Positions 7,464 to 53,150 of a stretch of DNA of 64,000 nt are shown in pieces (the stretch's first letter is position 1; the number at the start of each line of letters is the position of its first letter). Under the pieces are notes generated by a model that had not been told where the DNA came from, ran no database searches, and saw only the letters and a program-made list of their open reading frames with translations. This DNA comes from Candidatus Gastranaerophilales bacterium (GTDB taxonomy: Bacteria > Cyanobacteriota > Vampirovibrionia > Gastranaerophilales > Gastranaerophilaceae): NCBI GenBank assembly GCA_944323035.1, contig CALUQY010000001.1:3131-67130 (forward strand), in the 5' to 3' direction. Both the position numbers and the translations under genes were made by a program.

Positions 7464-8642
7464 TTATCTTTTCACGCACATACTCCGCCCCGGGTGAGTT
7501 TTTAAAGCTTGTGCACAATTCCCTGTATGCAAAGCACAACGCCAACTCCTTGTAGGGTCGCCAATAACCATACTTGAAGAAAAAGCATCCGTCAACGTAA
7601 AATTAATCAAACTTCTGTTAACAAATAAAGATATTAATTCATCCCTGTTGGGCAATCGAACCTCTTCACTTTGCTCACGACAAAATCTGACATTTCCTTC
7701 ATAAACGACTGTAACATCCAGGACTTTATCTGTAGGAACCGGAGCAACAACAGAAGTATCTGTAGGCTGCAACGCAGTTATAAAGCCAATATCCTTACCG
7801 ACAGTATTAGGCCCTCTGCTTCCGTTTAAATCATAAACAAAATTCGCACATACAATTGCCTGTGAACGAAACTCCGATTCGTTATAAATAGATTTACATA
7901 ACGGATTATAATAAACCAAAACGCTTTCGCCATTAGCGGTTTCAAAGGCAGCTGCTTTTGTATTAAGCTGATGATAAGACCAACCGCCGGAATCGAAATC
8001 AAATCTTTCATTAAAATCTACAAGAGTTGTTATATCTTCCAACATAAGTGCAGAAGCTGTAGAGCCTTCGCCTATAAATGGCATTATCTTTTTGGGCAAG
8101 CCGCAATCCTCAAGGTGTTCATTATCACAAATATTGTTGATTTTAAGGACTTTTGCAAGCCCGTTTGTAACAAAAGTTTCAGCCGCTGTATCCTCAATTG
8201 AAGTAGAACCCGCGCTGTCTGTAGTTTCTCTTAATGTACCATAACCGTTCAAAGCAGGCATTAAAGCGATTGCCTGTGAAAATCTTGCATAAAGAGCTTT
8301 TCTTTGCGTGTTCCACGTGCGTTCGTTTATGTTTCCTGTAAGGCTTGGTAAGGTTATCGCCGCGACCACGCCGATTATTGTAAGGGATAACAGGATTTCC
8401 GCCATGGTGAAGGCACATTTCTTGACCGACAGCCTGTTGACCAAACATAGAACAGACTCAGTCGGTGTCATCGCGAGGGCGGAAGCCCGTGGCGATCCAG
8501 TCAAGCTCGTGGCGTCCTCAACTGGATTGCCACGCCGACTTCCGTCGGCTCGCAATGACATCGTGGTGCCCTCAACACCTAATCGGGCGGATAAGGCACG
8601 CCCCCCCCCCGTGTACAGGAATACTCTTCGATTGTTTTTCAT
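7464..8642 (-). CDS. Type IV pilin-like protein (prepilin-type N-terminal methylation domain), long leader, polyG in frame (ON)
   Basis: Class III signal ..KKCA|FTMAEILLSLTIIGVVAAITLPSL with E at +5. Conserved RBS (aaaggatgg) and ATG at 8642 give MKNNRRVFLYTGGGRA, read through the G10 tract in frame into the pilin. C-terminal ~270 aa are shared with three paralogs in this window. Confidence 0.7.
   Translation of the reverse strand: MKNNRRVFLYTGGGRALSARLGVEGTTMSLRADGSRRGNPVEDATSLTGSPRASALAMTPTESVLCLVNRLSVKKCAFTMAEILLSLTIIGVVAAITLPSLTGNINERTWNTQRKALYARFSQAIALMPALNGYGTLRETTDSAGSTSIEDTAAETFVTNGLAKVLKINNICDNEHLEDCGLPKKIMPFIGEGSTASALMLEDITTLVDFNERFDFDSGGWSYHQLNTKAAAFETANGESVLVYYNPLCKSIYNESEFRSQAIVCANFVYDLNGSRGPNTVGKDIGFITALQPTDTSVVAPVPTDKVLDVTVVYEGNVRFCREQSEEVRLPNRDELISLFVNRSLINFTLTDAFSSSMVIGDPTRSWRCALHTGNCAQALKTHPGRSMCVKR
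8601..8610 (-). repeat. Homopolymeric G10 tract (C10 on + strand) in the 5' coding leader of a pilin-like gene
   Basis: Counted directly: cccccccccc at 8601-8610, encoding GGG on the minus strand. Confidence 0.9.
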
Positions 8643-8689: not shown

Positions 8690-8890
8690 ATTCTAGTTAA
8701 TGAGTTAATCAGTTAATAAGTTAATTAGGGTTATAAAATGTTACCCGGGTTTATTCTCGTCAATTTCGGTCATATTCCTTATTAACTCTTTAACTTATTA
8801 ACTTTTCTCGGCCTTTCGTCCATTACGACTTATTGCCCTATTGCCCTATTGCCTTATTCATTATGTACCATGTTTTATAATTAGTCAAGA
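8690..8890 (-). promoter_or_regulatory. Conserved pilin-gene upstream module: sigma70-like promoter, 8-bp tandem arrays, hairpin ttgggctttccagcccaa
   Basis: cttgactaa..N..tacataat (TTGACT-N18-CATAAT read on minus) at ~8850-8885. ttattgcc 8-mers at 8830-8860. ttaatNag 8-mer arrays at 8705-8740 and inverted at 8795-8820. Hairpin at 8668-8690. The same layout recurs at 47760-47995 and 57200-57470. Confidence 0.55.
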
Positions 8891-20394: not shown

Positions 20395-20429
20395 ACATAA
20401 ATATATAATTATGTATTCAAAAAAATCAA

Positions 20430-20965
20430 GCTGCCATGCGGCATAAGAAAACAGTTTTCTGCTGCTTCGTCCAGCGTCTTGCCCGAATTGGGCTTAACCG
20501 GATAACTTTTAAAATGTCATTCCGAATTGCGCGAGCGAGCAGTTCGGAATGACATGAGGGGGCGGCGTTGGTTGACTGGATTGCCGCGCGGTCTGCGACC
20601 GCTCGCAATGACAAATACTTTACGGACTTCACGCTTACTTTTCTCGTGGTACAGTCGCACGGGTAATAAAGCAGTTCTCCGCCGCACCGCCTCGCTGAAC
20701 GGCGAGCCGTTAGCGGCTGCGCTGTCTAATACGCCACTCAAAAGACTCGCTTGCGTGAGCGGGAGTTGCCCTGCAACTCATTCACGCCACGTTCCTTATC
20801 GCGAGTCTTTCTCGGACAAATATGACCGAATTGACGAGAAAAAAACCGGATAAAATCCCATAATCCTAATTAACTTATTAACTTATTAACTTTTGTCGTC
20901 CATTCGGCCATTACGACTTATTGCCTCATTGCCTTATTCACTTATTGCCTTCTTTATTATGTACG
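20430..20965 (-). repeat. Repeat-laden 5' leader: GC-rich hairpin modules plus TTAATAAG arrays and a pilin-type promoter upstream of the J-protein gene
   Basis: Hairpins gtcattccgaa..ttcggaatgac (20518-20555) and cattgcgagcggtcgcagaccgcgcggcaatcc. aataaagcagttctccgccgcaccgcctcgc..acgccactcaaaagactcg (20660-20760) is ~identical to 27098-27200. taattaacttattaacttattaac at 20868-20895. Promoter cttgattaaa..cgtacataat at 20935-20965 (minus). Confidence 0.55.
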
Positions 20966-20975
20966 ATTTTTCTCT

Positions 20976-21254
20976 TTAATCAAGCCCGTGCAGATATTCG
21001 TGTATATCCAGAACTTCATCAATCGTTATCGGTTCTGCCCCCTGAACAATTTCCAGCGGTTCGTGCGGCTGGCCGACGCCCTCGTGAACTTTTAAAATTC
21101 CAAGCCCGAAATCCTTACCGCATTTCGGACAGACCATTCTGACAACATTAGCACCTTTTTCCTTGCGGACAACCGTAAACGCATCACGGTCAATATCGTT
21201 CTTACAGTAGGAACAACACAAATTTGAAAATAATCGCTTAAACTTCTTTCCCAT
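20976..21254 (-). CDS. Hypothetical zinc-ribbon protein
   Basis: CCSYCKND...CPKCGKD. Confidence 0.3.
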   Translation of the reverse strand: MGKKFKRLFSNLCCSYCKNDIDRDAFTVVRKEKGANVVRMVCPKCGKDFGLGILKVHEGVGQPHEPLEIVQGAEPITIDEVLDIHEYLHGLD

Positions 21255-26952: not shown

Positions 26953-27029
26953 ATCTTCTTCCTTATTACAAATATTCCCTGACAGTATTATATTACAAAA
27001 AGGGATTTGGGCAAGGGTTTGCAAAAAGT

Positions 27030-27275
27030 TAATGAGTTAATAGGTTAATGAGGAATATGACCAAATGGATAAATAGTAGAATTAAGATTATTTCCTAATA
27101 AAGCAGTTCTCCGCCGCTCCGCCTCGCTGAACCGCGAGCCGTGGCGGCTTCGCTGTCTAATACGCCACTCAAAAGGCTCGCTCACGTTCCTTATCGCGAG
27201 CCTTTCTCGGACAATAATCCTAATTAACAGCAGCCGCAGGCTGCGATTAACTTATTAACTTATTAACTATTTTAA
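27030..27275. mobile_element. MITE-like element: inverted TTAATNAG octamer arrays flanking a GC-rich hairpin core
   Basis: gttaatgagttaataggttaatgagg (27030-27055) and the inverted cgattaacttattaacttattaac (27250-27275) bracket a core (27090-27235) that is ~identical to 20660-20800. Confidence 0.5.
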
Positions 27276-28225: not shown

Positions 28226-28244
28226 ATAGTCTACTATCTCCTGT

Positions 28245-28375
28245 TGCCCGCCATGTCATCCCGAATTTGTTTCGGGATCTGACCGGTATTGAAATCAGAA
28301 TATATACTCTGACCCGCCTGTTCCGCGATGTTTGACAGATGCTGAAACAAGTTCAGCATGACAAAAGAGGGCTCT
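28245..28375. repeat. GC-rich hairpin-repeat modules (gtcatcccgaatttgtttcgggatc ; gatgctgaaacaagttcagcatgaca)
   Basis: Same two hairpin modules recur at 47518-47605 and 56958-57050. Confidence 0.6.
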
Positions 28376-28644
28376 CTTATTTACATATTTTAATATTACC
28401 CGAAAAAAGCTTTATAAACAAGTTTGAAGTGCTACAATAATAAAAACCCTGATAATGCCTGATACCAAAGTGCATGGGATATGCAGAACTTCCGAATATT
28501 AAGAATTGTAAAATTTAACTTAAAAAAGACGCAATTTTTAAAATTCAGGAATTTTAATATAGTTGTAGTAGAATAAAGTAAAAGGTTATTATCTTTTATT
28601 AGGTAGAAACTAACAAATAGTGTATAGATAAAGGAGAATTACTT

Positions 28645-29748
28645 ATGTCAGAACAAAATCAAATGGCAATTAGCCCGGTTACCGCAGGCTTAACAGGCGC
28701 CGCAATCGGTGGTATTGGTAACTATTTCTTAGGGGTTGGTGCTGCACCTAAAAAAGGTTACAAAGATGCAAAAGAATTGTTAACCTTAGAACCAGACAAG
28801 TTTGAAGAACTTAAAAAGAAAATTGACGCCAGCAGCAATGAGGAAGCAAAAACAGAATTTAAAAAGTTAGAAGATGGTAGAAAAATCGTTTCTTCTGCCG
28901 GCGATACTCTTGAAAAAGAACAAGCTGCAGCAAGAAAAGATATGGATGCCGCTATTGAAAAAGATTTAGAAAAAAACCTTACCGGAGATGCAAAAACTAA
29001 ATTCACTGATGCTGTTAAAACAGAAAAAGATGCTTTAACTAAAGCCCAAAATGACTATGCAACAGTAGGTCAAGAAAGAAAAAAAGCCGGCACTGAATTA
29101 GCAAAAGCAAGAGAAGATTACAAAAATAAATTAACGACTAAATATAATGCAATTGTTAATGACAAGGCAGACGGAACTTTAGGTAAACAATTAGCAGATT
29201 TAGAAGCTTCAAAAGCCGGTAAAACAGGCGATGAATTAGCAAAAATCGAAAAAGATATCAAAGCTAAAAAAGCAGAAATTCATGCAAAGGCATTAGAAGA
29301 TGCTGAGGTAAAAGCTGCCGCTGAAAAGTTAAAAACTGAACGTAAAGCAGTAACAACAGCTAATAAAGCAAAAATTGATGCTGTTCCTACAGCACAGGAA
29401 GCGTACAATAAAAAGTTAGTAGACTCAGCTGATGAAGCTCTTAAAGATGTAAAAGCTAACAAAGACGGTAATGCTTTAGAAAAATTAAAAGCCGACATTA
29501 ATAACTGGAAGACAAAATTAGCTGAAAAGGTTGACGATGTGAAAGCTAAAAATATTGAAGCACTTATGAGTGATGATGGTGTTGATGGCGTTAAATTGAA
29601 AGACCTTGATACAGGTAAATTCAAGAAATTCTTACCAAAAGCTAAAACTTGGCCGACAGTTATCGCAGCAGCAGCTTTGGGTCTTGCAGGCGTAGCTCTA
29701 GCTTATATGGTAGGCCCTAAAAACACAACTCCTGCTGATGTGGCATAG
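28645..29748 (+). CDS. K/E/A-rich coiled-coil protein with Gly-rich hydrophobic N-terminus and C-terminal transmembrane anchor (hypothetical)
   Basis: 367 aa with ~300 aa of low-complexity KEAD helix. Hydrophobic N-terminus AISPVTAGLTGAAIGGIGNYFLGVGAA and C-terminus VIAAAALGLAGVALAYMV. Codon usage looks atypical for the window (TTA/AAA/GCA bias). Confidence 0.5.
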   Translation: MSEQNQMAISPVTAGLTGAAIGGIGNYFLGVGAAPKKGYKDAKELLTLEPDKFEELKKKIDASSNEEAKTEFKKLEDGRKIVSSAGDTLEKEQAAARKDMDAAIEKDLEKNLTGDAKTKFTDAVKTEKDALTKAQNDYATVGQERKKAGTELAKAREDYKNKLTTKYNAIVNDKADGTLGKQLADLEASKAGKTGDELAKIEKDIKAKKAEIHAKALEDAEVKAAAEKLKTERKAVTTANKAKIDAVPTAQEAYNKKLVDSADEALKDVKANKDGNALEKLKADINNWKTKLAEKVDDVKAKNIEALMSDDGVDGVKLKDLDTGKFKKFLPKAKTWPTVIAAAALGLAGVALAYMVGPKNTTPADVA

Positions 29749-29749
29749 C

Positions 29750-30400
29750 CCGAGCAGAGGCAGGAGCAAGGCAAAGCCTTGCGAACAGGCGAACACGCGA
29801 CCGGCAAAACCGCGATTTTGGCGGCAAGTGTGAGCGGTGCCGTTTAACGCGAGGGCGTAAAAGCTCACAAAAAACGGGAAATCTATACAATAGACAATAA
29901 GTAATTTTCAAATAAAAAAAGCCATTCCTGACGGAATGGCTTTTTAATAAAGCAGTTCTCCGCCGCACCGCCTCGCGTCTTGCTCGACTCACGTTTAACG
30001 GCATTCAGGCAAAAACGCGGTTTTGCCTTGGAATGCCTCAGTTCGCTCGCGCTGAATGCATCAGCCGATGTTCGCAGTGTCGGCACACGGGAGTGTGACG
30101 AGCAGGCGAACATAATATCTCCGCCGTTTCTAATCTTTGATTTGACAGGCGGAAGAAACCGCGAGCCGCGCGTTTCCCTCTCGAAAAACAGTTCACTGAA
30201 TTGTTTTTCTCGGCAGAGTGCTGTCTACCTCTCGCGAAACAATTCACTGGATTGTTTCGCTCGGCAGAGTGCCACTCAAAAGACTCGGCCACTGAGTGGC
30301 TTCCACATTCAGTGTATACGCTCACTGTAACGATTGATACAAGTATGGCTCCGGCTCAGCCGGGCGCGAGTCTTTCTCGGACAATTTATTACAACATCTT
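29750..30400. repeat. Cluster of GC-rich interspersed repeat modules including a 2-copy ~45-bp tandem
   Basis: aataaagcagttctccgccgcaccgcctcgc at 29945 (also at 20665 and 27100). tcagccgatgttcgcagtgtcggcacacgggagtgtgacgagcag at 30061. Tandem aacagttcactgaattgtttttctcggcagagtgc / aacaattcactggattgtttcgctcggcagagtgc at 30185-30285. gccactcaaaagactcg at 30280; gcgagtctttctcggacaa at 30366. Confidence 0.6.
29921..29945 (+). terminator. Terminator hairpin gccattcctgacggaatggc + T-run (copy 1 of a 30-bp direct repeat)
   Basis: Exact hairpin plus flanks repeated at 31013-31037. Confidence 0.65.
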
Positions 30401-30433
30401 GACAACCACTGGTTGTCATGTTATAATAAGGAT

Positions 30434-30712
30434 ATGATTAAATCATTCAAACATAAAGGTTTGGAAGAGTTTTTTAACACCGGCTCAAAAAAAGGCATCC
30501 AAGCTATACACGCAGAAAAATTAGTATTAATTCTGGCAATCCTTGATACAATGAAAAATCTTGAACCTTTACAACCGGCAATGTTCAGACTCCACAAACT
30601 TGAAGGTAAAATGAATGATTTATGGTCAATTACAGTTCAGGCAAACTGGCGGATAACTTTTCGATTTGAAAATGAAAATGTTTATGTCGTTGATTATCTG
30701 GACTACCACTAA
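30434..30712 (+). CDS. higB: HigB-family (RelE/ParE-fold) toxin
   Basis: MIKSFKHKGLEEFF...RLHKLEG...WSITV..NWRITFRFENENVYVVDYLDYH, the classic HigB 'killer protein' pattern. SD aaggat sits 3 nt upstream of this ATG, which is preferred over the track start at 30413. Confidence 0.85.
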   Translation: MIKSFKHKGLEEFFNTGSKKGIQAIHAEKLVLILAILDTMKNLEPLQPAMFRLHKLEGKMNDLWSITVQANWRITFRFENENVYVVDYLDYH

Positions 30713-31002: not shown

Positions 31003-31012
31003 AAAAAGAAAA

Positions 31013-31037
31013 GCCATTCCTGACGGAATGGCTTTTT
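31013..31037 (+). terminator. Terminator hairpin gccattcctgacggaatggc + T-run (copy 2)
   Basis: Identical to 29921-29945; sits 3' of higA. Confidence 0.65.
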
Positions 31038-34929: not shown

Positions 34930-36309
34930 TTACAGAAACTTCCTTTTTACAAAACAGAATAGAAACCGCTCAACCGTTTGAAGTATTACAACATCGGCAT
35001 CCCCTATATTACTTTTCTTGACGTCATAAGTCCAATAGTAAGATACATCACGGAAAGTATTAGAAATAAACGGTAACATCGCACGGGAAAATGAATCCCG
35101 AAACATAACAAGTTTTGGTGCATCAATGTCCTTATGTGAAAACATATCATTATGCGACAACAAATCGCTCGGAGTGGTATCTTTTATAGAAAATTCATAG
35201 TCTTTTGTTATAAATGCATCTACATATTCGGTATTTGCAGCCGCACTCTTAGATAATCCAATCAACATATTATCTAATTCTTTAATTCCCGCCTTATATC
35301 TAACAAATTTTTCAGGTTTTACCGGCTCAATATCAACGCCATCATTAATCAATGCATCTGCCAATGCTTTATACCCGACATATCCGCCTAAAGAGTTCCA
35401 ATGCGTATCATTTTTCCAGTATAAAAGCTCGCCTTTTTCCTTAGCCTGATACAGTTCATTATATGGATAAATCACCTTAATATCCGTATGTTTATGCAAA
35501 TAATTTATCAACTGCATAACACGGCTTTTGCTATTAGGAATAGTTTGTTTTATATAATCAGGATAATACTCACCATAGATTTTATTCTTATCCGGTCCAA
35601 TAAAGAAATAAAAACGCTTATTCCTTTGTTTACAATATTCATCAACTGAAACCAGATAGTTAGCAATATATTTTAATTCATCATCGGTAAACAAATCTAA
35701 ATTCAGGAAATTACGAACACCATTCTCTCCTTTATAAAATAACCAGTCATCTTTGCCTATCACAACATCCGGCTGATTTTTATCTAAAACAAATTTTGCA
35801 TTAAACTTTAGCAGCAGATTTCTTAAGTTAAATCTGTCACTGAACCATTTGTCATAATCGCGGCCAAAATTATAGTTTATTTGTCCTTTTTTGTTGATAA
35901 ATGGCTTCCATACCGCAAGATTTCGGTTCTCTGCATCTGATTTTTTTGCATCTGAGATATGGCTCATCGGAAGAAACATTATTACTGTACATACTGCCAA
36001 AAATACTATATCTATACGGGAATACTTCTTCTCTGTCTTAAAATCCGCAAGATATGAAGTCAGTTTATACGATAGCAGATAACCTAATATCGCAATGATT
36101 ATAAACGGCAACGCGTCAAACTTTACACTCGGACGAACGGGTTTGCGAGATTGGCTGTTTATAGCGGGTAAGGCACGCCCCCCCCCCCCCCGCACTGTTT
36201 GCACGGCAACAGGTGATTTCGGTTTTATCGTAAGCCACGCATTGTGGCTCAAGCCTAATATCACGAATACAAGTAATATACTTATTATACTTCTTTTACG
36301 CATTAACAT
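34930..36309 (-). CDS. AlgJ/AlgX-like (DHHW-family) polysaccharide O-acyltransferase-associated protein, paralog A, in-frame G14 tract
   Basis: TM1, then R-GGGG-R encoded by G14, then TM2/TM3 (ALPFIIIAILGYLLSYKLTSYLADF), then a periplasmic domain NRNLAVWKPFINKKGQINYNFGRDYD...WKNDTHWNSLG (DHHW-type motif variant DTHW). Confidence 0.6.
   Translation of the reverse strand: MLMRKRSIISILLVFVILGLSHNAWLTIKPKSPVAVQTVRGGGGRALPAINSQSRKPVRPSVKFDALPFIIIAILGYLLSYKLTSYLADFKTEKKYSRIDIVFLAVCTVIMFLPMSHISDAKKSDAENRNLAVWKPFINKKGQINYNFGRDYDKWFSDRFNLRNLLLKFNAKFVLDKNQPDVVIGKDDWLFYKGENGVRNFLNLDLFTDDELKYIANYLVSVDEYCKQRNKRFYFFIGPDKNKIYGEYYPDYIKQTIPNSKSRVMQLINYLHKHTDIKVIYPYNELYQAKEKGELLYWKNDTHWNSLGGYVGYKALADALINDGVDIEPVKPEKFVRYKAGIKELDNMLIGLSKSAAANTEYVDAFITKDYEFSIKDTTPSDLLSHNDMFSHKDIDAPKLVMFRDSFSRAMLPFISNTFRDVSYYWTYDVKKSNIGDADVVILQTVERFLFCFVKRKFL
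36178..36191 (-). repeat. Homopolymeric G14 tract (C14 on +) inside coding region
   Basis: Counted: ccc + cccccccccc + c at 36178-36191; encodes RGGGGR in frame. Confidence 0.9.
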
Positions 36310-36314: not shown

Positions 36315-37718
36315 CTAAAATCTAAAATAAATAAACGGATTATACGTTGAAGCCGCTATGGTCGCAGTTGAGAAAATCAACAGCACAATAAGCCAAACAT
36401 TCACAAAGGCTTTTACAATTTTGTTTTCCTGTTGCAGCATCTTCCCGCACAACGGCGTACAGCAAATAAATGCAGCTGCAAAAATTATAAATTCAAAATT
36501 ATCAACATAATACGGCAATGCATAAATTACATCATGAACTTTAACCAGCCCGAACATATTTTTAATATATGTCCACGCATACGCCATATCTTCAGCCCTG
36601 AACATTACCCAGCCGATTACAAATACAAGAATTGTATAAATATGTTGAAGGACTTTCTGCCAGATATATTGTTTTTCTTCATGCCAGCCGGTTAATTTTT
36701 CCAGAATAATAAAGAACCCGTTCCACGCGCCCCATACAACAAAATTCCACGCAGCACCATGCCAGATACCAGTCAGGAGAAAAACTATACCCAAATTCCG
36801 GATAGTTTTCCATTTTCCGGCTCTGTTTCCGCCAAGCGAAATATACACATACTGTTTGAACCATGTCGAAAGTGATATATGCCACCTGCGCCAAAATTCC
36901 GTAATAGATTTTGAAATATAAGGATAATTAAAGTTTTCAAGGAAATGAAACCCGAAAATAAGCCCAAGACCTATTGCCATATCCGAATATCCCGAGAAAT
37001 CAAAGAACAACTGCAAAGAATATGCAATGCTTCCCAGCCATGCAATAAGCGGCGAAAAAGTATCCGGCGCCTGAGAAAATATTTTATCCGCAATAGCCCC
37101 CATTGTATTTGCCAGAAGCATCTTTTTAGATAAACCTACAATAAAACGCTTTGTTCCGAATACAACTTTTTCAAAGTTAACATCACGATTATCTATCTGA
37201 TCCGCGACATCATGGTATTTAACAATCGGCCCTGCTATTAACTGCGGGAACAAACATATATAAAGCGCAAGTTTATAAACATCCTGCTGTGCCTTACATT
37301 CTCCACGATACACGTCTACGACATAAGACAAAGCCTGAAAGGTATAAAAAGAAATACCAATCGGCATTACAATATGGAGTAAATCAATATGAGAATGGAA
37401 AAGTCCATTAATATTCTCAATTAAGAAGTTAAAATATTTGAAGTAAATAAGTGAGCCTAGATTGATACAAATAGTCAAAATCAAAGGAATCTTAGCATTT
37501 CTGCCGGATTCTTTAAACTTTTCAACGATTTTTGCGCCATAAAAATTAACAAGTATCGTTAAAAGCATTATAGCCAGATACTTAGGCTCACCCCATGCAT
37601 AAAATATTATGCTTGCGACAAGTAAAATCGGATTGTGAAGCTCTTTTTTGGAAATCAAATAGAGCAAGCACACAATCGGCATAAACATATACACAAACGT
37701 CATTGACGAAAATAACAC
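36315..37718 (-). CDS. MBOAT-family membrane-bound O-acyltransferase (AlgI/DltB/PatA-like)
   Basis: Multi-TM protein; MBOAT signature WRRWHISLSTWF...GIWHG with the conserved His. Confidence 0.85.
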   Translation of the reverse strand: MLFSSMTFVYMFMPIVCLLYLISKKELHNPILLVASIIFYAWGEPKYLAIMLLTILVNFYGAKIVEKFKESGRNAKIPLILTICINLGSLIYFKYFNFLIENINGLFHSHIDLLHIVMPIGISFYTFQALSYVVDVYRGECKAQQDVYKLALYICLFPQLIAGPIVKYHDVADQIDNRDVNFEKVVFGTKRFIVGLSKKMLLANTMGAIADKIFSQAPDTFSPLIAWLGSIAYSLQLFFDFSGYSDMAIGLGLIFGFHFLENFNYPYISKSITEFWRRWHISLSTWFKQYVYISLGGNRAGKWKTIRNLGIVFLLTGIWHGAAWNFVVWGAWNGFFIILEKLTGWHEEKQYIWQKVLQHIYTILVFVIGWVMFRAEDMAYAWTYIKNMFGLVKVHDVIYALPYYVDNFEFIIFAAAFICCTPLCGKMLQQENKIVKAFVNVWLIVLLIFSTATIAASTYNPFIYFRF

Positions 37719-39442
37719 TAATTACCCTCCTTGTATAAAAATTTTAATCTTATAGCAGATGATAAACAGAGCACTAATACATTTGTATTATTATTCAATA
37801 TATCCTTTTCAAAACGTTCAATATTTAAGTTTTTAAAAGCCAGACTAATTTCCGGAAGCCAGGTATAAATTCTTTCTGTATTTTTAAAGCTATAAACAAT
37901 AGATTGTAAAAGATTTTCACCCATAGAATCTCCCCAAAGAGTCAAATTTGGAGCGGCAACATCATGTTTAAAATGTTTTAGCTTGTAATTTGCAGGATAA
38001 TTGGAATCAATCTTTAATGAAACATTTTCAGATTCTTTATTTTTATAATACTTATATTCAGTATCAAAAATTTTTTCATCTTTTAAGTGTAATACATTTG
38101 CAGTAAAACCGTTATGAAATGGGCGTTCCGGTTCGACCCTTACCTTTGGTGAATAAAAATAACTAAAATCACTCTCGTCATTAACATAAATAGAAGGAAA
38201 ATCCTTTTTTATATACTGCATTAAACATTTATATGCAAGATAAGCACCCTCATCAGTCCAATGGTGATCAGTCTTGTAAAAAAGCAATTCTTTACCGTTT
38301 GCAGCATTCTTAAATTCATCAATCGGATACAAAATATCAACATTTATCTTATTTTTAACATACTCTTTCACTTGCATCGTACGTGCATATTCATTACTTT
38401 TTGCAACCAGCGGAAATAGATTTGCTGAATAAACGTCATATTTTGAAGGGGCAATTAAAATATAAAATTTTATATTATTTTTCAGACAAAATTGTTTTAA
38501 ACGATTTATACTATAAACTATTCGTTCCAATTCCTCATTATTATAATAGCCGGATGATGGCCAATACGTATTACTCATCCAATTATTTCTTTTATTTATA
38601 AATCCCTGTTTATTTTCAAAATAATAAAATGCTATTTTATATTTAAATTGATTATAAAAAGATACTAAATATTCACGTAAATTAAACCTGTCACTGAACC
38701 AATTATCGTAATCACGCCCAAAATTATAGTTTATTTGACCTTTCTTATTAATAAATGGCTTCCAGACTGCAAGATTACGGTTTTCAGCATCTGAAAGTTT
38801 AGCATCAGAAATATGACTCATTGGTAAGAATAAAAATAACGCACAAATAATTAAAAATATTATATCTATACGGGAGTAATTACCAACGACCTTAAAATCT
38901 GCCAAATATGAGGTCAGTTTATACGACAGCAGATAACCTAATACCGCAATGATTATGAATGTCAATGCTTCAAATTTTATACCGGAGCGGACTTTTAGTT
39001 TTTCAGGATATGTCAAGCTGAAAGTATTAGCAGAAGGCATTAAGGAGTCCCCCCCCCCCCCGTACGTAGCACAGGACGCTAACTTAAACTCGGATACAGA
39101 TGGAAATTTAAACTTACCATTCTTCAGCGTAATATCTTTTATTTCAATTGGAGATAAATTCGATGATTTAACTACAATTCTAAAGCGTTTTGGGAATCTA
39201 GCTCTATCTATTTGACATTCACATTTCTGTATATTTCCATTCAAGTGTTTCTTTATAACGCACTGTTTTACTTTTTTAAAATCCTCATTATCCTTCTTAT
39301 TCAACTGGACGGTAAATGTATAATCTCCGTTACCTTTTACCAGAAAACTCACCGGCATTGGTTTAAATATCAGCCAGTGATTGCAGGTAAGAGCTAGCAT
39401 AATTATTGTCAAAACCCCGCTTATAATATCTCTTCTTCGCAT
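37718..39442 (-). CDS. AlgJ/AlgX-like DHHW-family protein, paralog B, in-frame G13 tract
   Basis: FYKTDHHWTDEGAYLAYK (canonical DHHW). N-terminal 200 aa are ~identical to paralog C. ATY-GGGG-DS encoded by G13. Confidence 0.65.
   Translation of the reverse strand: MRRRDIISGVLTIIMLALTCNHWLIFKPMPVSFLVKGNGDYTFTVQLNKKDNEDFKKVKQCVIKKHLNGNIQKCECQIDRARFPKRFRIVVKSSNLSPIEIKDITLKNGKFKFPSVSEFKLASCATYGGGGDSLMPSANTFSLTYPEKLKVRSGIKFEALTFIIIAVLGYLLSYKLTSYLADFKVVGNYSRIDIIFLIICALFLFLPMSHISDAKLSDAENRNLAVWKPFINKKGQINYNFGRDYDNWFSDRFNLREYLVSFYNQFKYKIAFYYFENKQGFINKRNNWMSNTYWPSSGYYNNEELERIVYSINRLKQFCLKNNIKFYILIAPSKYDVYSANLFPLVAKSNEYARTMQVKEYVKNKINVDILYPIDEFKNAANGKELLFYKTDHHWTDEGAYLAYKCLMQYIKKDFPSIYVNDESDFSYFYSPKVRVEPERPFHNGFTANVLHLKDEKIFDTEYKYYKNKESENVSLKIDSNYPANYKLKHFKHDVAAPNLTLWGDSMGENLLQSIVYSFKNTERIYTWLPEISLAFKNLNIERFEKDILNNNTNVLVLCLSSAIRLKFLYKEGN
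39049..39061 (-). repeat. Homopolymeric G13 tract (C13 on +) inside coding region
   Basis: Counted cc + 10c + c at 39049-39061. Confidence 0.9.
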
Positions 39443-39532: not shown

Positions 39533-41257
39533 TTACAACTTTTCCTCAAAAATATCCATAAAAGAATCCATATTTAAGAAACGTTGTAAAAAACGTTCTG
39601 TCGTTTCTATAATTAATATATCCGGTTTTTCAGAAAACAATAGACGTTTCATGTTTTCATTCAAAACAAAATTTCTACCACCACCAAAGAATAGATATTT
39701 ATAGATATGAAAATTTTCAGCCATGAAATACCTACAACGTAATTGAAAACTGTCACCAATTAAAACAAGTTTTAAATCATTTTGAGATTTTGCATTACTA
39801 TACTCATATAGTACATCATCTGAATTATTAGTAACATGTATGATAGATTCTTTAGCATTTGGATATTTGAGTTTATAATAATTAAAGCGATCTTCATATT
39901 TTGCTATAATGTTTTTATTTGTAATATTAAGACTGTCACCAATACGTTTACTACTAACCAATTCAACATCACTAAAATCTAATGGCTGAATATCTACAAA
40001 ATCTTTTTGTAAAGTCGACAGAATCGTTTGATACTCTATAAATGCCCCATCATAATTTAAATGGCTATCAGTTTTAAAAAATACATTTAGCTTTTTTGAA
40101 ACTAATAATAATTTTTCCTTAGAGGTTATTACTGACAAATCATTAATGTGTGAGATTATTGCTAATAATTGTTCATAACGGCTTTGACAATTATTTTGTA
40201 AATAATACTTCGGATAATATTCGGGGTAGATACTTTCTTTATCTGGTGACAACATAATATATAATTTAACATTGTGCTTTTTACAATATAAGTTTAATTC
40301 ATTTAAATTTTGCTGTATTGTAAACAACTCTTCTTTAGAAAATAGATTGTTTTTCAAATACATTTGAGTTGCATTATATGATTTGCGATAACAATAACCC
40401 GAAACCTTATCTAATATCATGACTCTTGTTTCATAGTACCTACCGGGAAGAATAAAATGTAATTGTTCATACAAACCAAACAATACACTCCGTAAACCAA
40501 ACCTGTCACTAAACCAGTTATCATAATCACGACCAAAATTATAATTTATTTGACCTTTTTTATTAATAAATGGCTTCCAGACGGCAAGATTTCGGTTCTC
40601 TGCATCTGATTTTTTTGCATCTGAGATATGACTCATTGGTAAGAATAAAAATAACGCACAAATAATTAAAAATATTATATCTATACGGGAGTAATTACCA
40701 ACGACCTTAAAATCTGCCAAATATGAGGTCAGTTTATACGACAGCAGATAACCTAATACCGCAATGATTATGAATGTCAATGCTTCAAATTTTATACCGG
40801 AGCGGACTTTTAGTTTTTCAGGATATGTCAAGCTGAAAGTATTAGCAGAAGGCATTAAGGAGTCCCCCCCCCCCCCGTACGTAGCACAGGACGCTAACTT
40901 AAACTCGGATACAGATGGAAATTTAAACTTACCATTCTTCAGCGTAATATCTTTTATTTCAATTGGAGATAAATTCGATGATTTAACTACAATTCTAAAG
41001 CGTTTTGGGAATCTAGCTCTATCTATTTGACATTCACATTTCTGTATATTTCCATTCAAGTGTTTCTTTATAACGCACTGTTTTACTTTTTTAAAATCCT
41101 CATTATCCTTTTTATTCAATTGAACTGTAAACGTATAATCCCCATTCCCTTTAACGAAAAAGGTTACAGGTAAAGGTTTAAATATTAACCAGAATTTACT
41201 CGTCAAAACAAGCAATATTATGGTCAAAATAGCACTTATAATATCCCTTCTACGCAT
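39533..41257 (-). CDS. AlgJ/AlgX-like family protein, paralog C (degenerate DSHL motif), in-frame G13 tract
   Basis: N-terminal ~215 aa identical to paralog B (DNA 40615-41257 = 38800-39442). C-terminal domain diverged, FFKTDSHLNYDGAF. Confidence 0.55.
   Translation of the reverse strand: MRRRDIISAILTIILLVLTSKFWLIFKPLPVTFFVKGNGDYTFTVQLNKKDNEDFKKVKQCVIKKHLNGNIQKCECQIDRARFPKRFRIVVKSSNLSPIEIKDITLKNGKFKFPSVSEFKLASCATYGGGGDSLMPSANTFSLTYPEKLKVRSGIKFEALTFIIIAVLGYLLSYKLTSYLADFKVVGNYSRIDIIFLIICALFLFLPMSHISDAKKSDAENRNLAVWKPFINKKGQINYNFGRDYDNWFSDRFGLRSVLFGLYEQLHFILPGRYYETRVMILDKVSGYCYRKSYNATQMYLKNNLFSKEELFTIQQNLNELNLYCKKHNVKLYIMLSPDKESIYPEYYPKYYLQNNCQSRYEQLLAIISHINDLSVITSKEKLLLVSKKLNVFFKTDSHLNYDGAFIEYQTILSTLQKDFVDIQPLDFSDVELVSSKRIGDSLNITNKNIIAKYEDRFNYYKLKYPNAKESIIHVTNNSDDVLYEYSNAKSQNDLKLVLIGDSFQLRCRYFMAENFHIYKYLFFGGGRNFVLNENMKRLLFSEKPDILIIETTERFLQRFLNMDSFMDIFEEKL
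40864..40876 (-). repeat. Homopolymeric G13 tract (C13 on +) inside coding region
   Basis: Counted 7c + 6c at 40864-40876. Confidence 0.9.
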
Positions 41258-42069: not shown

Positions 42070-42342
42070 ATGGCTACAGAAGTTTTTCAATTTAAACCGC
42101 AGGGTGTCTGCTGTCAGTTAATGCAAATTTCTGTCAATGACGGAATCGTAGAAGATGCACAATTTATGGGCGGCTGCCACGGCAACCTTCAGGGCATCGG
42201 CAAACTCGTCAAAGGAATGCCCGTTGATGAAGTTATTACAAAGCTTCAGGGAATAAAATGCGGAAGTAGACCGACAAGCTGCCCTGATCAGTTGACCCAA
42301 GCACTAGTTGCATATAAAGATCACAAAAATGCTCCTGTATAG
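42070..42342 (+). CDS. TSCPD-domain protein
   Basis: C..........GGCHGNLQGI..L..G........KL.GIKCGSRPTSCPDQL, which includes the eponymous TSCPD motif. Confidence 0.55.
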   Translation: MATEVFQFKPQGVCCQLMQISVNDGIVEDAQFMGGCHGNLQGIGKLVKGMPVDEVITKLQGIKCGSRPTSCPDQLTQALVAYKDHKNAPV

Positions 42343-42494
42343 CGTCGGCCGGTGCTCACAGTGCCAACACATGTTAGTGTGGTGAGCAGGTGAGCATTAC
42401 GATACCGCCGTTACGATTGGAGCAGAGCGTAAAGAATGTACAGAAAATCCTATAGCAATGCTATAGGATTTTTTGCCTGACGTGAAAGCGTTTT

Positions 42495-43565
42495 TTATTT
42501 AGTAATTTCCCTGTTATTTTCAACCATTTTCCACGCCTGACGCGGGCAGAGCGCCGCACAAATTCCGCAGCCTATACACTTATTATCATCGGAATGGTAA
42601 ATTTTTGCCTCTGTAGAAATCGCATTTTGCGGACAGTTTTTAACACAAATATCACACCCGATACAAAGTTCTTTATTCCACTGCGGAATACGGCATCTGG
42701 CATCACCGGTTCCTGCAAGTTCAAACACCGCATAATCATCTGTAATAAAATCCCCGAAAATCCCGCCCGGAATCCATTCTTTTTGACGGAATTCCGCAAC
42801 CGGCATTCTGTTCTTTGAGGATTGTGCAACGGTTTGAATTTTATGCCATTCTTTAAAGTTTGTAAGTTCATTATAAAGTTCAGACCGACCGATTTTATCA
42901 AGAAATCTTTTCAGTCCGGAGCGCAAAAATTCAATATCTTTTTCATCAAGGTTCAGGATTTCGACGCAATGCGACAGGTTTTCAACTTTTCCGCGCACAA
43001 AAATTGTACCGCCGACCATTCCGCCGCAGGAGCCTTTCCCTAATACAGATTCCAGCCTGTCGCAGTCATAACCGCAGACAATTGCAATACCGCCGCCCAT
43101 AAATTCAAAACTATAAGAACCCGTATTTTTTAAAACCCAGAATTCAGGGATTTTAAAACGCGGATCGTGTTTCATCAGAGCGCCCGAACGGGTTCCGACA
43201 CGTCCGCCGATGTAGATTTCACCTGACGCGGCACAATGAGCGGTCGTATCACCGCTATCTCCTTTTACAATAATTTCCGCGCCGGAATTTAACCAGCCGG
43301 TATCCGCCGGAACTGAACCCTCAACAATAATTTGGGTACCTTTCATACCCATTGCCCCGACACGCTGACCCGGATTCTTAACAAGAAAATGCAAAGTTTT
43401 GCTTCTGTCGCGCGCCCAGCTTGAACCGCCGATATTATGCTGTCCGCAGCCGTTTATCTCAAAATCAGTATACCCCTCGTCAATTTTTGCCTGAATTAAT
43501 TGCAAAAGTTCCTGAGTGGACATTCTGTTTTCATTTATTAAAGTTTCAATTTTAAATCTTTCCAT
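42495..43565 (-). CDS. Glutamate synthase domain-3 (GXGXG) protein fused to 2x[4Fe-4S] ferredoxin (archaeal-type split GltB)
   Basis: Repeated G-x-G-x-G beta-helix motifs (GSVPADTGWLNSGAEIIVKGDSGDTTAHCAASGEIYIGGRVG..). C-terminal CIGCDICVKNCP...CIGCGICAALCP. Confidence 0.65.
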   Translation of the reverse strand: MERFKIETLINENRMSTQELLQLIQAKIDEGYTDFEINGCGQHNIGGSSWARDRSKTLHFLVKNPGQRVGAMGMKGTQIIVEGSVPADTGWLNSGAEIIVKGDSGDTTAHCAASGEIYIGGRVGTRSGALMKHDPRFKIPEFWVLKNTGSYSFEFMGGGIAIVCGYDCDRLESVLGKGSCGGMVGGTIFVRGKVENLSHCVEILNLDEKDIEFLRSGLKRFLDKIGRSELYNELTNFKEWHKIQTVAQSSKNRMPVAEFRQKEWIPGGIFGDFITDDYAVFELAGTGDARCRIPQWNKELCIGCDICVKNCPQNAISTEAKIYHSDDNKCIGCGICAALCPRQAWKMVENNREITK

Positions 43566-46408: not shown

Positions 46409-47747
46409 TTAACGTTCAACACATCGGGAACTATATCTATTATTCCTTGAAACCAACATTCTGGCTCCTGAAGAGATATTTTGAGCCCAAGCCTTTGTAC
46501 CGGAAGTCGTATACCCCAAAGAAGATGTCCAAATTGAGCCATTACCGGTTCCGATAAAATGATCACGACTTTGCATTCTTTTATTAACAAAAATGGCTCC
46601 TGCTTCTTCTGTTGTTGGAAGTCTATACTTATTATCCTGTGCAGTACAATATTTAGCGGCATCAATCCAGCCGTTTTCATGAACAGCATTTTCACGTTTT
46701 ACATAAGGTGCTGCCAAAACGCTATCCGTTGGATAAAAAGCGGTCATAAAACCTATATCTTTACCAACAGTATTCGGCCCTTTAAGTCCATTAAGATCAT
46801 ATACAAAATTTGCGCAAACCATTGTCTGTATTGGCACATGAGCTTCAGAAGATTTTAAATCTGCAACGCAGTTTTTATTATAATAAACAGCAATACTTTC
46901 ACCGTTAGCAGTTTCAAACGCAACAGCTTTACTCCGTATAGCGCTATAAGAATACGTAGAGTCATAACTTGAGCTTGCCAGAACCATCTGTGTATTTAAA
47001 GCAGCCATTGTTGTGGGGAAATTAAAATCTGCTTCACCAGAAAGGCGTGTTATTGTTTTAGGTAAACCGCAATCTTTAAAATGTTCATTGTCACAGATAT
47101 TATTAATTTTTAAGACTTTAGCCAGTCCTGCAGTGACGAAAGTTTCAGCAGCTGTATCCGCCGTGACACTGCCGGAATCATCTTCCGCTAGTGTACCATA
47201 ACCATTAAGATTAGGCATTAAGGCAATTGCCTGACTCATTCTGGCATAGAGGGCTTTTCGCTGCGTGTTCCATGTGCGCTCGTTAATGTTTCCCGTAAGG
47301 CTCGGTAAGGTTATCGCCGCCACCACACCTATTATCGTGAGGGATAAGAGTATCTCCGCCATAGTAAAAGCTAATCGCGCCAACCGCCCCACGTCATTGC
47401 GAGCGACCACCGGGAGCGTGGCAATCCACCGGCGGTCAAGCCGGCTTCCTAATTGGTTGGGCGTTAAAAAGTCATGTTCTACCAGTTGTGGATGCCACTC
47501 AGCGGTCGGTTCAGCCGGTGTCATCCCGAATTTATTTCGGGATCTGTCCGGCGACACTGATAGCCCGCATCGCTGGCCAGATGCTGAAACGAGTTCAGCA
47601 TGACAGTTTTGTTTCACATTCTCGCTTTGTGCCTCTGTTCGCTCGCGCTGTTCGCAATGACAATTATAGGCTTTCGACTCGCCAATAGTGCCTGTTAAGA
47701 GAGGCCCCCCCCCCCCCTGCATTAATGCTTACTCTTCGGTTTTTCAT
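46409..47747 (-). CDS. Type IV pilin-like paralog, polyG OUT of frame (phase OFF) relative to conserved start
   Basis: Conserved RBS + ATG at 47747 gives MKNRRVSINAGGGG.. and terminates after 27 codons with G13. Pilin frame 46409-47722 contains ..LARLA|FTMAEILLSLTIIGVVAAITLPSL. G12 or G15 would fuse the two frames. Confidence 0.65.
47705..47717 (-). repeat. Homopolymeric G13 tract (C13 on +)
   Basis: Counted 6c + 7c at 47705-47717. Confidence 0.9.
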
Positions 47748-47759: not shown

Positions 47760-47995
47760 TTCTTTTGTTGCGTTGGGCTGGAAAGCCCAAACTACTGGAA
47801 TAAGGCAATAGGTCATTAAGGCATTAAGGCAATATGACCTTTATATTATTTTCTGCCATTTCGGTCATATTCCTTATTAACTTTTTAACCTATTAACTTA
47901 TTAACTTTTCTCGTCCATTTGACCATATTGCCTTATTCTCTTATTGCCTTCTTCATTATGTACAATGTTTTCTATTTAGTCAAGCCTACAGGCTG
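47760..47995 (-). promoter_or_regulatory. Pilin upstream module (hairpin, 8-mer arrays in inverted pairs, TTGACT-N18-CATAAT promoter)
   Basis: ttgggctggaaagcccaa at 47771-47790. Arrays ggcaataggtcattaaggcattaaggcaatatgacc and the inverted ccttattaac..ttattaac. Promoter cttgactaaatagaaaacattgtacataat (minus) at 47955-47990. Confidence 0.55.
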
Positions 47996-50149: not shown

Positions 50150-50262
50150 GTTAATAAATTAATGAGTTAATCACTGCCTCCGGCAGCGTTAATAAGGATT
50201 TTGTGAATTAACCCGAATTAATATTCATCAATTTGGTTATATTCCTAATTAACTTATTAACA
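50150..50262. mobile_element. Short MITE-like element with inverted TTAATNAG arrays
   Basis: ttaataaattaatgagttaatcac ... inverted cctaattaacttattaac, with conserved inner aatttggttatattcc. Confidence 0.45.
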
Positions 50263-50274
50263 TTATTTTGTCGA

Positions 50275-51793: not shown

Positions 51794-53030
51794 TTAATTA
51801 CGCTTGACGCATTTGACCCTTTTGGCTTCTGTTTCATCTATAGGTTCAAGAAATATTCTTCCGGTTGTGCCGCTCATATTCCATGCTTTAGTTGAATCAT
51901 AGCGGCTGGATGACCAATAGTGTAGACTTGCAATATTAAGCAATTTGCTATTATAAAACATAGAAATAACTTCACCTATGTTTGGCACACGGTATTCTGC
52001 ATCCAAAGCCGTACAGGCCTTGGGTGCCTCATTAAAGTCAACTTCAACGCCCGCATTCCGAGGATACAGCATCGGGGCGACAACAAGGCTGTCTGACGGA
52101 TACAACACCGTCATTACACCGATGTCTTTACCAACAGCATTCGGACCTTTGCTGCCGTTTAGGTCATACACAAAGTTCGCACAAACCTTGCTCGCACCAT
52201 AGTAATCTGTTTCCTGCATATCTGCCCTGCAAGTTGGATTATAGAAGGCGAGAATACTTTCGCCATTCTGGGTTTCAAAAGCAGCGGCTTCGCTATCTAC
52301 ATTACTATAAGAATAGTCTATTGGTGTTGAAGCAGTAGTATCGGTAAATGACATACTTGTGTTTTTAGGGTTCAATTCACTGACGAGTTTTGGCATTGAC
52401 GTTGTACTGCCAGCGTTATCCGTAATCTGTTTTGAGGTTATTCCGCAATCTTCAAGGTGGTCTTTGTCGCAGATATTATTAATTTTCAAAACCTTAGAAA
52501 GCCCGGCCGTTACAAAAGTTTCGGCATCGGAATAGCCGTTCATTGAATCCATTAACGAAACTGCCTGTGAAAACCTTGCATATAGCGCTTTTCTTTGCGT
52601 ATTCCACGTTCGTTCATTAATGTTTCCTGTAAGTGACGGAAGCGTTATCGCTGCGACTACGCCGATAATTGTTAGGGATAACAGTATCTCAGCCATGGTA
52701 AACGCTGACCGTAAGCTGACCAGACCATTGTGGAACCGGCTCAGCCGGGCTGCCATCGTGAATGCGCAACGTTGGTTCTCCCGCCTGTCAAATTCTACGC
52801 AACGATTATCAATCGTTGCAGAATTTGTCCGCTCCTTACACTCGCGCTCCAGTCGCAACGGCGGCATCGTCCAGTTGCGCGCCCTGCCCGTTTCGCTCGC
52901 GCGAACCGGCGCCGGCTCTCCGCCCTTCGCTGTAGCTTTCACGCCGTCCGTGAGCACGGATTGCTTAGATAGAACCGGCTCAGCCGGCCCCCCCCCCCCC
53001 TGCATAAGTAATTACACTTCGGTTTTTCAT
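51794..53030 (-). CDS. Type IV pilin-like paralog, polyG OUT of frame (phase OFF)
   Basis: ATG at 53030 gives MKNRSVITYAGGGGAG*. Pilin frame 51794-53005 contains ..LRSA|FTMAEILLSL. C-terminal ~240 aa are identical to the 56046-57149 paralog. Confidence 0.65.
52988..53000 (-). repeat. Homopolymeric G13 tract (C13 on +)
   Basis: Counted ccc + 10c at 52988-53000. Confidence 0.9.
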
Positions 53031-53116
53031 AAGTTTTTCTATCCTTTCTGGCTTCTCGCCATTATCTAATTGTGCATATCGCAATACGACACATTGTTAT
53101 TATGTACTATTTTTTT

Positions 53117-53150
53117 AAAAAAGTAAAGCCCCTTTCGGGGCGTTACTTTT
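53117..53150 (-). terminator. Terminator hairpin 3' of oxidoreductase operon
   Basis: gtaaagcccctttcggggcgttac with flanking T/A runs. Confidence 0.5.

Follow-up and report, generated by a model that had tools for sequence, protein, structure and literature searches.

GC-rich hairpin modules in a Gastranaerophilales genome: CGTC-tagged REP sequences in mosaic arrays and in the leaders of pilin-like genes

Introduction

Short, self-complementary, GC-rich modules recur in ten regions of a 64,000-nt stretch of DNA (hereafter the window) from Candidatus Gastranaerophilales (Melainabacteria), an uncultured human-gut bacterium. One of these regions, the array at positions 29750-30400, lies between a gene and higB and raises the question of what such modules are, how they come to be combined and why they persist. 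A preliminary description had likened them to repetitive extragenic palindromic (REP) sequences and bacterial interspersed mosaic elements (BIMEs), with a modular and combinatorial organisation, or to miniature inverted-repeat transposable elements (MITEs). Our analysis is in line with the first of these readings, as the core hairpins fit the criteria of CGTC-tagged REPs and strains differ by whole modules. It does not agree with the MITE reading, for filled and empty sites were compared and no target-site duplication was seen. We propose, with a probability of about 0.7, that the modules are selfish, recombining small palindromic repeats, similar to REPs and to Neisseria intergenic mosaic elements (NIMEs), which are tolerated wherever the sequence is free to vary.

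Results

Recurrence of the modules within and beyond the window

Self-BLAST of the window showed that every one of the ten regions has modules of 20-90 nt in common with at least one other, as had been described, and the modules quoted were all found at their reported positions. The GC content was reported to exceed 55%. It is indeed raised in all ten regions (47-60%, compared with 39.8% for the window), but only three of them are above 55%. The hairpin pattern GTCATYCCRAAYTNNKTTCGGRATCTG of the module family M_C was matched three times in the window and not once in 100 shuffles, and tagged hairpins were observed 11 times compared with 2.2 in shuffles. Folding, which had been suggested as a check, gave predicted z-scores of -2.8 to -5.8 relative to shuffled sequence in seven of the eight segments folded. 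No tRNA or tmRNA was found. The comparison with Rfam, suggested likewise, gave no match at gathering scores and, at E-values up to 1, none that overlapped a module.

The repetition extends beyond the window to other strains, species and phyla. The modules are present in other strains and in the Melainabacteria species L049, L058, L087, L096 and L117, and the core hairpin described below occurs in many phyla; the elements are thus not peculiar to the genome of the window. The window contig has identical or near-identical counterparts in many human-associated metagenome assemblies, including a closed 2.08-Mb contig. The same arrays were seen in more than 20 independent assemblies, closed long-read contigs among them.

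The core hairpin as a CGTC-tagged REP

The core hairpin has the form (C/T)GTC-AT..GAA-5 nt-TTC..AT-CTG. It is found mostly in pairs with the tags outside, or head to head (HH), the paired hairpins being 5-100 nt apart. The 64-kb window contains seven canonical tagged units plus the units of the family M_D. M_C, of which there are three HH dimers in the window, reads GTCATCCCGAA-5 nt-TTCGGGATCTG ... CAGATGCTGAA-5 nt-TTCAGCATGAC (at 28255, 47520 and 56965), and M_D reads GTCATTGCGAG ... GGCAATCCA (at 8467-8559, 20577 and 47393). The units are listed here; pil1 to pil4 are pilin-like genes treated below, and M_E is another module.

8467-8559: M_D dimer in the pil1 leader, GTCATCGCGAG..GGCGATCCA - spacer - TGGATTGCC..CTCGCAATGAC, with tagged arms that have CCA tails and with inner GGAA-loop hairpins
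20516-20554: double-tagged REP hairpin, (T)GTCATTCCGAA-16 nt-TTCGGAATGAC, with the remnant of an M_E end in its loop
20577-20612, minus strand: single M_D unit
28255-28362: M_C HH dimer, CGTC/TGTC-tagged with the tags outside; missing in strain L001, the same spacer being filled in species L087
47393-47428, plus strand: single M_D unit (GTCATTGCGAGCG...GGCAATCCA) in the pil2 leader
47520-47604: M_C HH dimer within the pil2 leader
56965-57049: M_C HH dimer within the pil4 leader

The tag is TGTC or CGTC on all seven canonical units in the window. Their stems are 8 bp long and start with AT (ATCCCGAA/TTCGGGAT, ATGCTGAA/TTCAGCAT, ATTCCGAA/TTCGGAAT), except for the arm at 57023, which starts with AC. 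Six of the seven have a 5-nt loop; the loop at 20516 is 16 nt and contains the remnant of another module. The 3-nt tail is CTG in M_C and CCA in the M_D units.

To survey the hairpin more widely, one genome per species was scanned with the M_C pattern. The 27-nt hairpin was found, with compensatory changes in its stem, in at least 117 genome stretches from many phyla, and 134 copies were analysed. Hosts among the matches listed were Gastranaerophilales, Treponema (including T. saccharophilum DSM 2985), Prolixibacteraceae, Draconibacterium, Gaoshiqia, Ignavibacteria, several lineages of the candidate phyla radiation and some Proteobacteria; cultured isolates of other phyla have the hairpin as well. 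In these listed matches GTC was preceded by T or C in 120 of the 134 copies, and stem pair 6/22, the only pair left free by the pattern, was T-A in 72, C-G in 59 and mismatched in 3. A second, inverted arm was located within 190 nt in 70 of the 134 listed copies. It ended in GAC in 66 of these 70 and appeared in six compensatory stem variants, and the spacer between the arms in other genomes had a median of 17 nt (range 1-113). Nine stretches of viral contigs from IMG/VR (L007-L015) also contain the tagged hairpin, sometimes as complete pairs, and phages could be a route of its spread between phyla.

CGTC-tagged REPs were defined by Di Nocera, De Gregorio and Rocco (2013, BMC Genomics 14:522; PMC3733652) as having a CGTC or TGTC tag, a stem of 8-9 bp that begins with AT, a loop of 4-5 nt and an unpaired 3-nt tail with the consensus CCA. 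They occur mostly as HH dimers (tags outside) whose spacers measure up to about 100 nt, in tens to thousands of copies per genome, some of them intragenic, and with no linked transposase; Neisseria dRS3 (CGTC-1) and Rickettsia RPE-4 and RPE-6 belong to them (PMC3733652). Judged by sequence, the core hairpins fall within this published definition. They agree with it in the tag, the 8-bp AT-first stem, the 5-nt loop and the tail length of 3 nt, as well as in the HH pairs with spacers, the intragenic copies and the lack of a linked transposase gene. They differ in that the main hairpin ends in CTG and not in the consensus CCA, which is the tail of the M_D units, and in that they are mixed with and interrupted by other structured modules. 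The Melainabacteria and candidate-phyla-radiation hosts are outside the five phyla listed in 2013 (PMC3733652). A literature search with the hairpin sequences returned chance primer matches only.

Other modules and the array at 29750-30400

The hairpins share the arrays with further modules, which were delimited by self-comparison. M_A is GTGTCGGCACACGNGAGTGTGACGAGCAGG, with the hairpin GTGTCGGCACACGGGAGTGTGACGAGCAGG, and is located at 2991-3020, 3357-3386, 30077-30106 (plus strand) and 42361-42390. M_B is TAATAAAGCAGTTCTCCGCCGC ... GCCACTCAAAAGACTCG ... CGAGTCTTTCTCGGACA and has three copies, at 20664-20818, 27096-27213 and 29945-30383; M_E, M_F and M_G are additional shared modules. M_A, M_B, M_E, M_F and M_G seem to be lineage-specific. 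Modules are either nested in the loops of hairpins or joined at short common linkers. For example, M_E-type inserts occupy the loops of tagged hairpins, where some are complete and others are reduced to remnants of 16-21 nt. The copies and arrays outside the focal region are as follows.

2967-3395: array between convergent genes, with two M_A, M_G and a reversed M_E
20664-20818, plus strand: M_B copy of 155 nt, its terminal loop enlarged by an insert of 37 nt
27096-27213, plus strand: M_B copy of 118 nt; the same spacer is without M_B in strain L001 and species L087
42345-42440: M_A-like module in a convergent spacer

Three helices were identified in M_B, two of them with 4 compensatory (covarying) pairs, and 99% of cells were paired compared with 28-44% in slid controls; as this comparison has six distinct sequences only, it is supportive and not conclusive. 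M_B is present in both orientations relative to local transcription. It has no inverted ends, and no conserved target tetranucleotide abuts its ends.

The focal array has the following composition.

29750-29915: block of GC-rich modules that follows immediately on the stop of gene 28645-29748 and precedes its terminator
29916-29944: terminator-like palindromic hairpin, AAAAAGCCATTCC-TGAC-GGAATGGCTTTTT, with a second copy at 31009-31037
29945-30383, plus strand: M_B as scaffold, with its 5' end at 29945-29976, its middle at 30271-30287 and its 3' end at 30363-30383
29977-30054, plus strand: M_E-type insert (GTCTTGCTCGACTCACG ... CAGTTCGCTCGCGCTG) nested in M_B; elsewhere found in the loops of tagged REP hairpins
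30177-30272, plus strand: two tandem hairpin units of 45 nt, 87% identical
30344-30363, plus strand: M_F palindrome, CCGGCTCAGCCGG, found also beside poly-G tracts at 52733, 52972 and 57092
30399-30427, plus strand: promoter-like site TTGACA-17-TATAAT (12 of 12 consensus matches) for higB (30434-30712), at the right edge of the array

Here M_B is interrupted by about 320 nt of nested modules, namely M_E, M_A, the tandem hairpins and M_F. In the block that precedes it, the sub-module at 29796-29859 recurs in pilin leaders of strain L139 and species L058. Given the positions of the terminator-like hairpin and the promoter-like site, most of the array lies between a terminator and the next promoter. 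In a second strain the array is 97.5% identical while the flanking genes are 99.6-99.9% identical. A divergence of 2.5% as opposed to 0.1-0.4% indicates that the array evolves faster than its neighbours, and the sequence comparison suggests that it may be under weak constraint.

Within the listed regions, the only terminator-like sites are 29916-29944 (an AT-flanked hairpin), 30288-30300 (short) and 57193-57210 (weak and M_G-like), and almost no T-run was found after a module. The 29-nt palindrome at 29916-29944 and 31009-31037 brackets a segment with the M_B array and a toxin-antitoxin pair (higB and a helix-turn-helix gene), and the two copies may be the borders of an inserted cassette.

Gain, loss and shuffling of modules

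Comparison of strains and species revealed differences in whole modules at several loci. At 28228-28383 M_C is present in the window and missing in strain L001, with no target duplication. At 27014-27272 the window has octamer repeats and M_B where L001 has a reversed M_C instead, and the spacer at 27001-27274 measures 273 nt in the window compared with about 4 nt in another species of the same gene order. Among strains, three states of the spacer at 42270-42495 were seen: 10 nt, a further 150 nt, and a further clean M_B of 120 nt, the insertion of which shows neither a duplication nor inverted ends. In the convergent spacer 2967-3446 entire modules, with the linker GCGT[CA]AGCCGGTG at their borders, distinguish the strains. 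At 20785-20818 two strains differ by 334 nt located between two copies of M_B, the pattern expected of recombination between these copies. In general, the arrays differ between strains at short common linkers or between two copies of one module.

The genes next to the arrays were also compared. In one strain pair, genes within 300 nt of an array had a median identity of 98.3%, compared with 99.4% for the others, and the difference was not significant (Mann-Whitney p = 0.15). Strain L139 has at 5057-5425 an extra small gene between two subunit genes of an oxidoreductase operon that is uninterrupted in the window. Its product has Pfam matches of the 23S_rRNA_IVP/bAvd-like type (the accessory-protein type of diversity-generating retroelements).

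Modules in the leaders of pilin-like genes

The modules were said to lie mostly 5' of or between genes. This is correct, although four of the ten regions are intragenic. Regions 8440-8600, 47395-47700, 52700-52985 and 56950-57105 are on the coding strand of four paralogous pilin-like genes, pil1 to pil4, and lie between a poly-G tract and a prepilin cleavage motif. The mature part of each paralog begins A/FTMAEILLSLTIIGVVAAITLP (the slash marks the cleavage site); the motif A/FTMAEILL is located 61-122 residues into long open reading frames (ORFs), with Glu at +5. The scores against TIGR02532 were 18.0 bits for pil1, 17.0 for pil3 and 16.3 for pil4, so that three of the four genes reach the cut-off of 16.3. 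Each locus has the order promoter-like site, AT-rich octamer arrays, ribosome-binding site, ATG start (MKN(N)RRV...), poly-G tract of 10-13 nt, 156-336 nt of REP modules, and AFT. The promoter-like site is TTGACT-17-CATAAT at pil1, pil2 and pil4 and TTTACT-17-CATAAT at pil3. The four leaders are listed below.

8412-8642, minus strand: pil1 leader; MKNNRRV start, poly-G at 8601-8610 (10 G), 189 nt of REP modules, A/FTMAEILL; in frame (ON)
47369-47747, minus strand: pil2 leader; poly-G at 47705-47717 (13 G), 336 nt of modules, stop-free in the pilin frame; start out of frame (OFF)
52703-53030, minus strand: pil3 leader; poly-G at 52988-53000 (13 G), 285 nt of modules, stop-free in the pilin frame (OFF)
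56952-57149, minus strand: pil4 leader; poly-G at 57108-57120 (13 G), 156 nt of modules; in frame (ON)

We then surveyed 36 leaders from the window, 18 strain loci and three other genomes. At least 19 leader architectures were found, the shortest 15 and the longest 342 nt. Measured from poly-G to the Phe codon, 34 of the 36 leaders were a multiple of three in length and stop-free in the pilin frame, and in all 34 open leaders the other two frames contained 1-8 stops. The two exceptions are from one assembly: one has a 97-nt M_E insertion in a hairpin loop, and the other falls 91 nt short of the 285-nt leader found at its locus. A module-free leader in another species has just 15 nt from poly-G to G/FTMAEILL and probably represents the state before insertion. 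These observations suggest that the modules are translated within a long leader, and that they may be tolerated there because the leader would be cleaved off, presumably by prepilin peptidase.

The poly-G tract at one locus varies between strains from 10 to 15 G, and such a change in length would put the MKN start in or out of frame; two of the pilin-like genes in the window are ON and two are OFF. The genes themselves are variable too. Among nine strains (the window and eight others), pil2 (46409-47722) was present in three. In loci L133-L150, pil1 (7464-8642) was missing in L149 and was 72% identical between two strains whose neighbouring genes were 96-100% identical.

These findings bear on the suggestion that the modules inflate spurious ORF calls. 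Where regions lie in frame within prepilin-like leaders, the long ORFs are apparently translated and probably real, so that the suggestion does not apply to those four regions. The two examples given for it, 20426-20853 and 29717-30330, are each a pair of overlapping ORFs on opposite strands.

Several other features of these loci were recorded. In the pil3 leader, at 52707-52790, a partial second pilin N-terminus (CAFTMAARLSRF) is fused to sequence that normally follows poly-G. The junction, which is also present in other strains and in L096 and L117, looks from its sequence like a fossil of recombination between pilin-like loci. Tandem arrays with an 8-nt period (AGTTAATA, CTTATTAA, TATTGCCY) were located at 8695-8725, 8778-8858, 20869-20951, 27027-27052, 27246-27268, 47801-47831, 47873-47950, 50150-50171, 50248-50267 and 57242-57385. 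They often form inverted pairs (potential long AT-rich hairpins) in the pilin-like leaders and beside several of the GC-rich arrays, and they could be binding sites of a regulator or a structure of the 5' leader. The promoter-like cassette TTGACT-17-CATAAT, with conserved flanks, was found at 8861-8889, 20956-20983, 47955-47983, 53099-53127, 57355-57383 and 57428-57456. As there are copies upstream of pil1 to pil4 and of the dnaJ spacer, the promoter seems to be part of a duplicated 5' module. Lastly, poly-C runs of 13-14 nt (poly-G on the coding strand) without REP modules are present at 36178-36191, 39049-39061 and 40864-40876. They lie in frame in the 5' coding part of three AlgX/SGNH-type acyltransferase paralogs (34930-36309, 37718-39442 and 39533-41257), which are candidates for further phase-variable genes. 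A literature search on Gastranaerophilales with pilin or phase variation found nothing relevant.

Mobilising enzymes and other identities

Gene calls and Pfam scans detected no transposase or recombinase in the 64-kb window, and no gene for a REP-associated tyrosine transposase (RAYT, a Y1 transposase) was found in the window or in the other loci examined, which were of 8-20 kb. Apart from the pilin-like genes of Melainabacteria, no protein family recurred beside the hairpin in the 117 matches listed.

Other identities were considered. MITE membership does not agree with the data, as M_C has inverted ends but no duplication at filled compared with empty sites and M_B has neither. The GTAG tag of REPINs (inverted pairs of REP hairpins) is replaced here by (C/T)GTC. 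Four further readings were rejected. There is no regular repeat-spacer periodicity as in a CRISPR array. The ends of integron attC sites are RYYYAAC/GTTRRRY; the module ends do not fit them, and no integrase is present. Almost all modules lack the T-run of intrinsic terminators, and both copy number and form are wrong for DNA uptake sequences.

Discussion

The modules of the window are discrete units, their stems are kept by compensatory changes, and they are gained and lost as whole modules without target duplications. We propose that they are non-autonomous and essentially selfish DNA. They may spread as single-strand hairpins, either by way of an enzyme acting in trans or through template switching at stalled forks, and homologous recombination would then reshuffle them. 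They would persist in intergenic spacers, in untranslated regions and in the N-terminal leader of phase-variable prepilin-like genes, where the only constraint would be a frame that stays open from the MKN..poly-G start to the A/F cleavage site.

Several observations weigh against this proposal. In many cases strains differ by the replacement of an entire spacer and not by a clean insertion, and recombination alone could produce such differences. Since neither an enzyme nor a mechanism of mobilisation was identified, the presence/absence polymorphism is the sole ground for calling the modules mobile. The conserved single-stranded segments and covarying stems of M_B would be in keeping with a functional RNA, or with a site bound by a protein, as well. 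A 21-mer of M_B had no match in the metagenome collection of the Joint Genome Institute (JGI), and a covariance model of M_B, run on 386 kb of related loci, detected no copies beyond those known before. Finally, the translation and cleavage of the leaders are deduced from sequence.

As an alternative, the arrays might be kept because they promote recombination at genes of variable surface structures, with crossovers at hairpins and linkers as in NIMEs leading to the exchange, gain and loss of pilin-like alleles. Four arrays are indeed in strongly strain-variable pilin-like loci (pil2 in 3 of 9 strains; pil1 at 72% identity or missing), the leaders contain fossil junctions of pilin N-termini, the same association of arrays and pilins is found in other Melainabacteria, and in Neisseria the silent pilS loci lie within NIME arrays whose dRS3 units are CGTC-type REPs. 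On the other hand, the divergence of array-adjacent genes was not significantly increased in the one strain pair compared, housekeeping genes (dnaJ, a sugar dehydrogenase gene, glutamate synthase) are the neighbours of many arrays and no recombinase was found. We regard this role as possible but doubtful. That the modules act as RNA, be it as cis-acting stabilisers, attenuators or processing sites or as small RNAs selected for a function in the transcript, is somewhat less likely still. Their predicted folds are strong, their stems covary, several copies are in probable 5' leaders or 3' untranslated regions, and an RNA role has been proposed in the literature for many REPs. Nevertheless, M_B is found in both orientations, its focal copy has a terminator on one side and the next promoter on the other, strains can do without a copy at a locus where others have it, and Rfam contains no match. 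It also counts against an RNA role that the HH pairs are symmetric and would thus fold equally on either strand.

Other alternatives concern the way in which the modules move. If the hairpin pairs were REPINs, they would be moved by a RAYT, an enzyme similar to those of IS200/IS605, whose gene would lie in another part of the genome. The architecture of two inverted hairpins with a short spacer between them, the lack of target duplications and the insertion into hairpin loops, which suits chemistry on single-stranded DNA, are all compatible with this. Yet the defining GTAG is missing, the published survey linked no transposase to CGTC REPs (PMC3733652), none is present in the window or beside the hairpin in the matches listed, and the ends of M_B have no conserved target tetranucleotide next to them; we consider this explanation unlikely. 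Classical MITEs, which are deletion derivatives of insertion sequences moved by a DDE transposase through terminal inverted repeats, are a weaker candidate still. The 27-nt inverted ends of M_C, the resemblance of some hairpins to two 11-nt inverted ends enclosing an M_E body, and the presence or absence of copies between strains would agree with MITEs. However, filled sites show no target-site duplication, M_B lacks inverted ends, neither a parent insertion sequence nor a transposase was found, and what would be an inverted end forms, in each case, a hairpin of its own in which pairs covary. Contamination with GC-rich DNA, chance similarity and an assembly artefact can practically be dismissed as explanations: the agreement of more than 20 independent assemblies argues against an artefact, shuffles give no matches, and cultured isolates of other phyla carry the hairpin.

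Two further ideas go beyond selfish, recombining repeats. It is conceivable, but we would hold to it only tentatively, that the arrays, the promoter cassette, the octamer arrays and the poly-G tract together constitute a 5' module that is portable and serves a family of surface-filament genes. If so, the translated and cleavable leader would be a safe landing pad, and hairpins and linkers would drive the exchange, gain and loss of pilin-like alleles. This would amount to a variation system in the style of NIMEs and pilS outside Neisseria, in a human-gut Melainabacterium. Separately, M_B may represent a small mobile element of a new kind, which produces no target duplications, has no inverted ends and is recognised by an enzyme through its single-stranded segments and stems.

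The analysis assigns a conspicuous feature of Melainabacteria, which gene callers have turned into hypothetical proteins, to a described superfamily of repeats, and it extends the host range of CGTC-tagged REPs to Melainabacteria and the candidate phyla radiation. What is noteworthy is that the 27-nt hairpin is nearly unchanged across distant phyla with no known mobilising enzyme, and that palindromes lie in frame in prepilin-like leaders. The filled, empty and nested sites provide material on the mechanism of movement. As far as sequence can tell, a cleaved leader peptide may absorb 150-340 nt of palindromic DNA if its frame stays open. A set of phase-variable pilin-like genes is also flagged in a common, uncultured lineage of the human gut.

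Comparison with known repeat systems

With the REPINs and BIMEs of gamma-proteobacteria the modules have in common the inverted hairpin pairs, the occurrence of pairs in mosaics and an abundance that varies by strain. They differ in that there is no GTAG tag and no RAYT transposase was found. Moreover, the hairpin is nearly identical across phyla, while REPIN families are reportedly lineage-specific according to Bertels and Rainey.

The heterocyst-forming cyanobacteria, a sister lineage of Melainabacteria, are said by Elhai et al. (2008) to have small dispersed hairpin repeats inserted into one another. The likeness in tiny, mutually inserting hairpins is one of description and serves as a lead only.

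Rickettsia palindromic elements resemble the modules in being palindromic repeats that lie in frame in protein genes without destroying them. Here, by contrast, the insertions are only in the N-terminal leader, where a phase-variation tract lies on one side of them and a peptidase cleavage motif on the other, so that the peptide they encode is probably discarded and does not stay in the mature protein.

In NIMEs, dRS3 hairpins (CGTC-1 REPs; consensus ATTCCCNNNNNNNNGGGAAT) flank diverse RS (repeat sequence) modules. The arrays vary between strains, embed silent pilin (pilS) loci and are said not to occur outside Neisseria. The arrays described here likewise consist of short palindromes separated by diverse modules, vary between strains at syntenic positions and are linked to pilin loci. 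They are shorter and less regular, however, and form GC-rich islands in an AT-rich genome. Their hairpin is ATYCCGAA-N5-TTCGGRAT instead of the ATTCCC-N8-GGGAAT of dRS3 and does not conform to the dRS3 consensus, no link to a phage integrase or recombinase was seen, and an effect on the divergence of flanking genes was not significant here (p = 0.15 for the single strain pair). The likeness to NIMEs is thus one of behaviour and not of membership.

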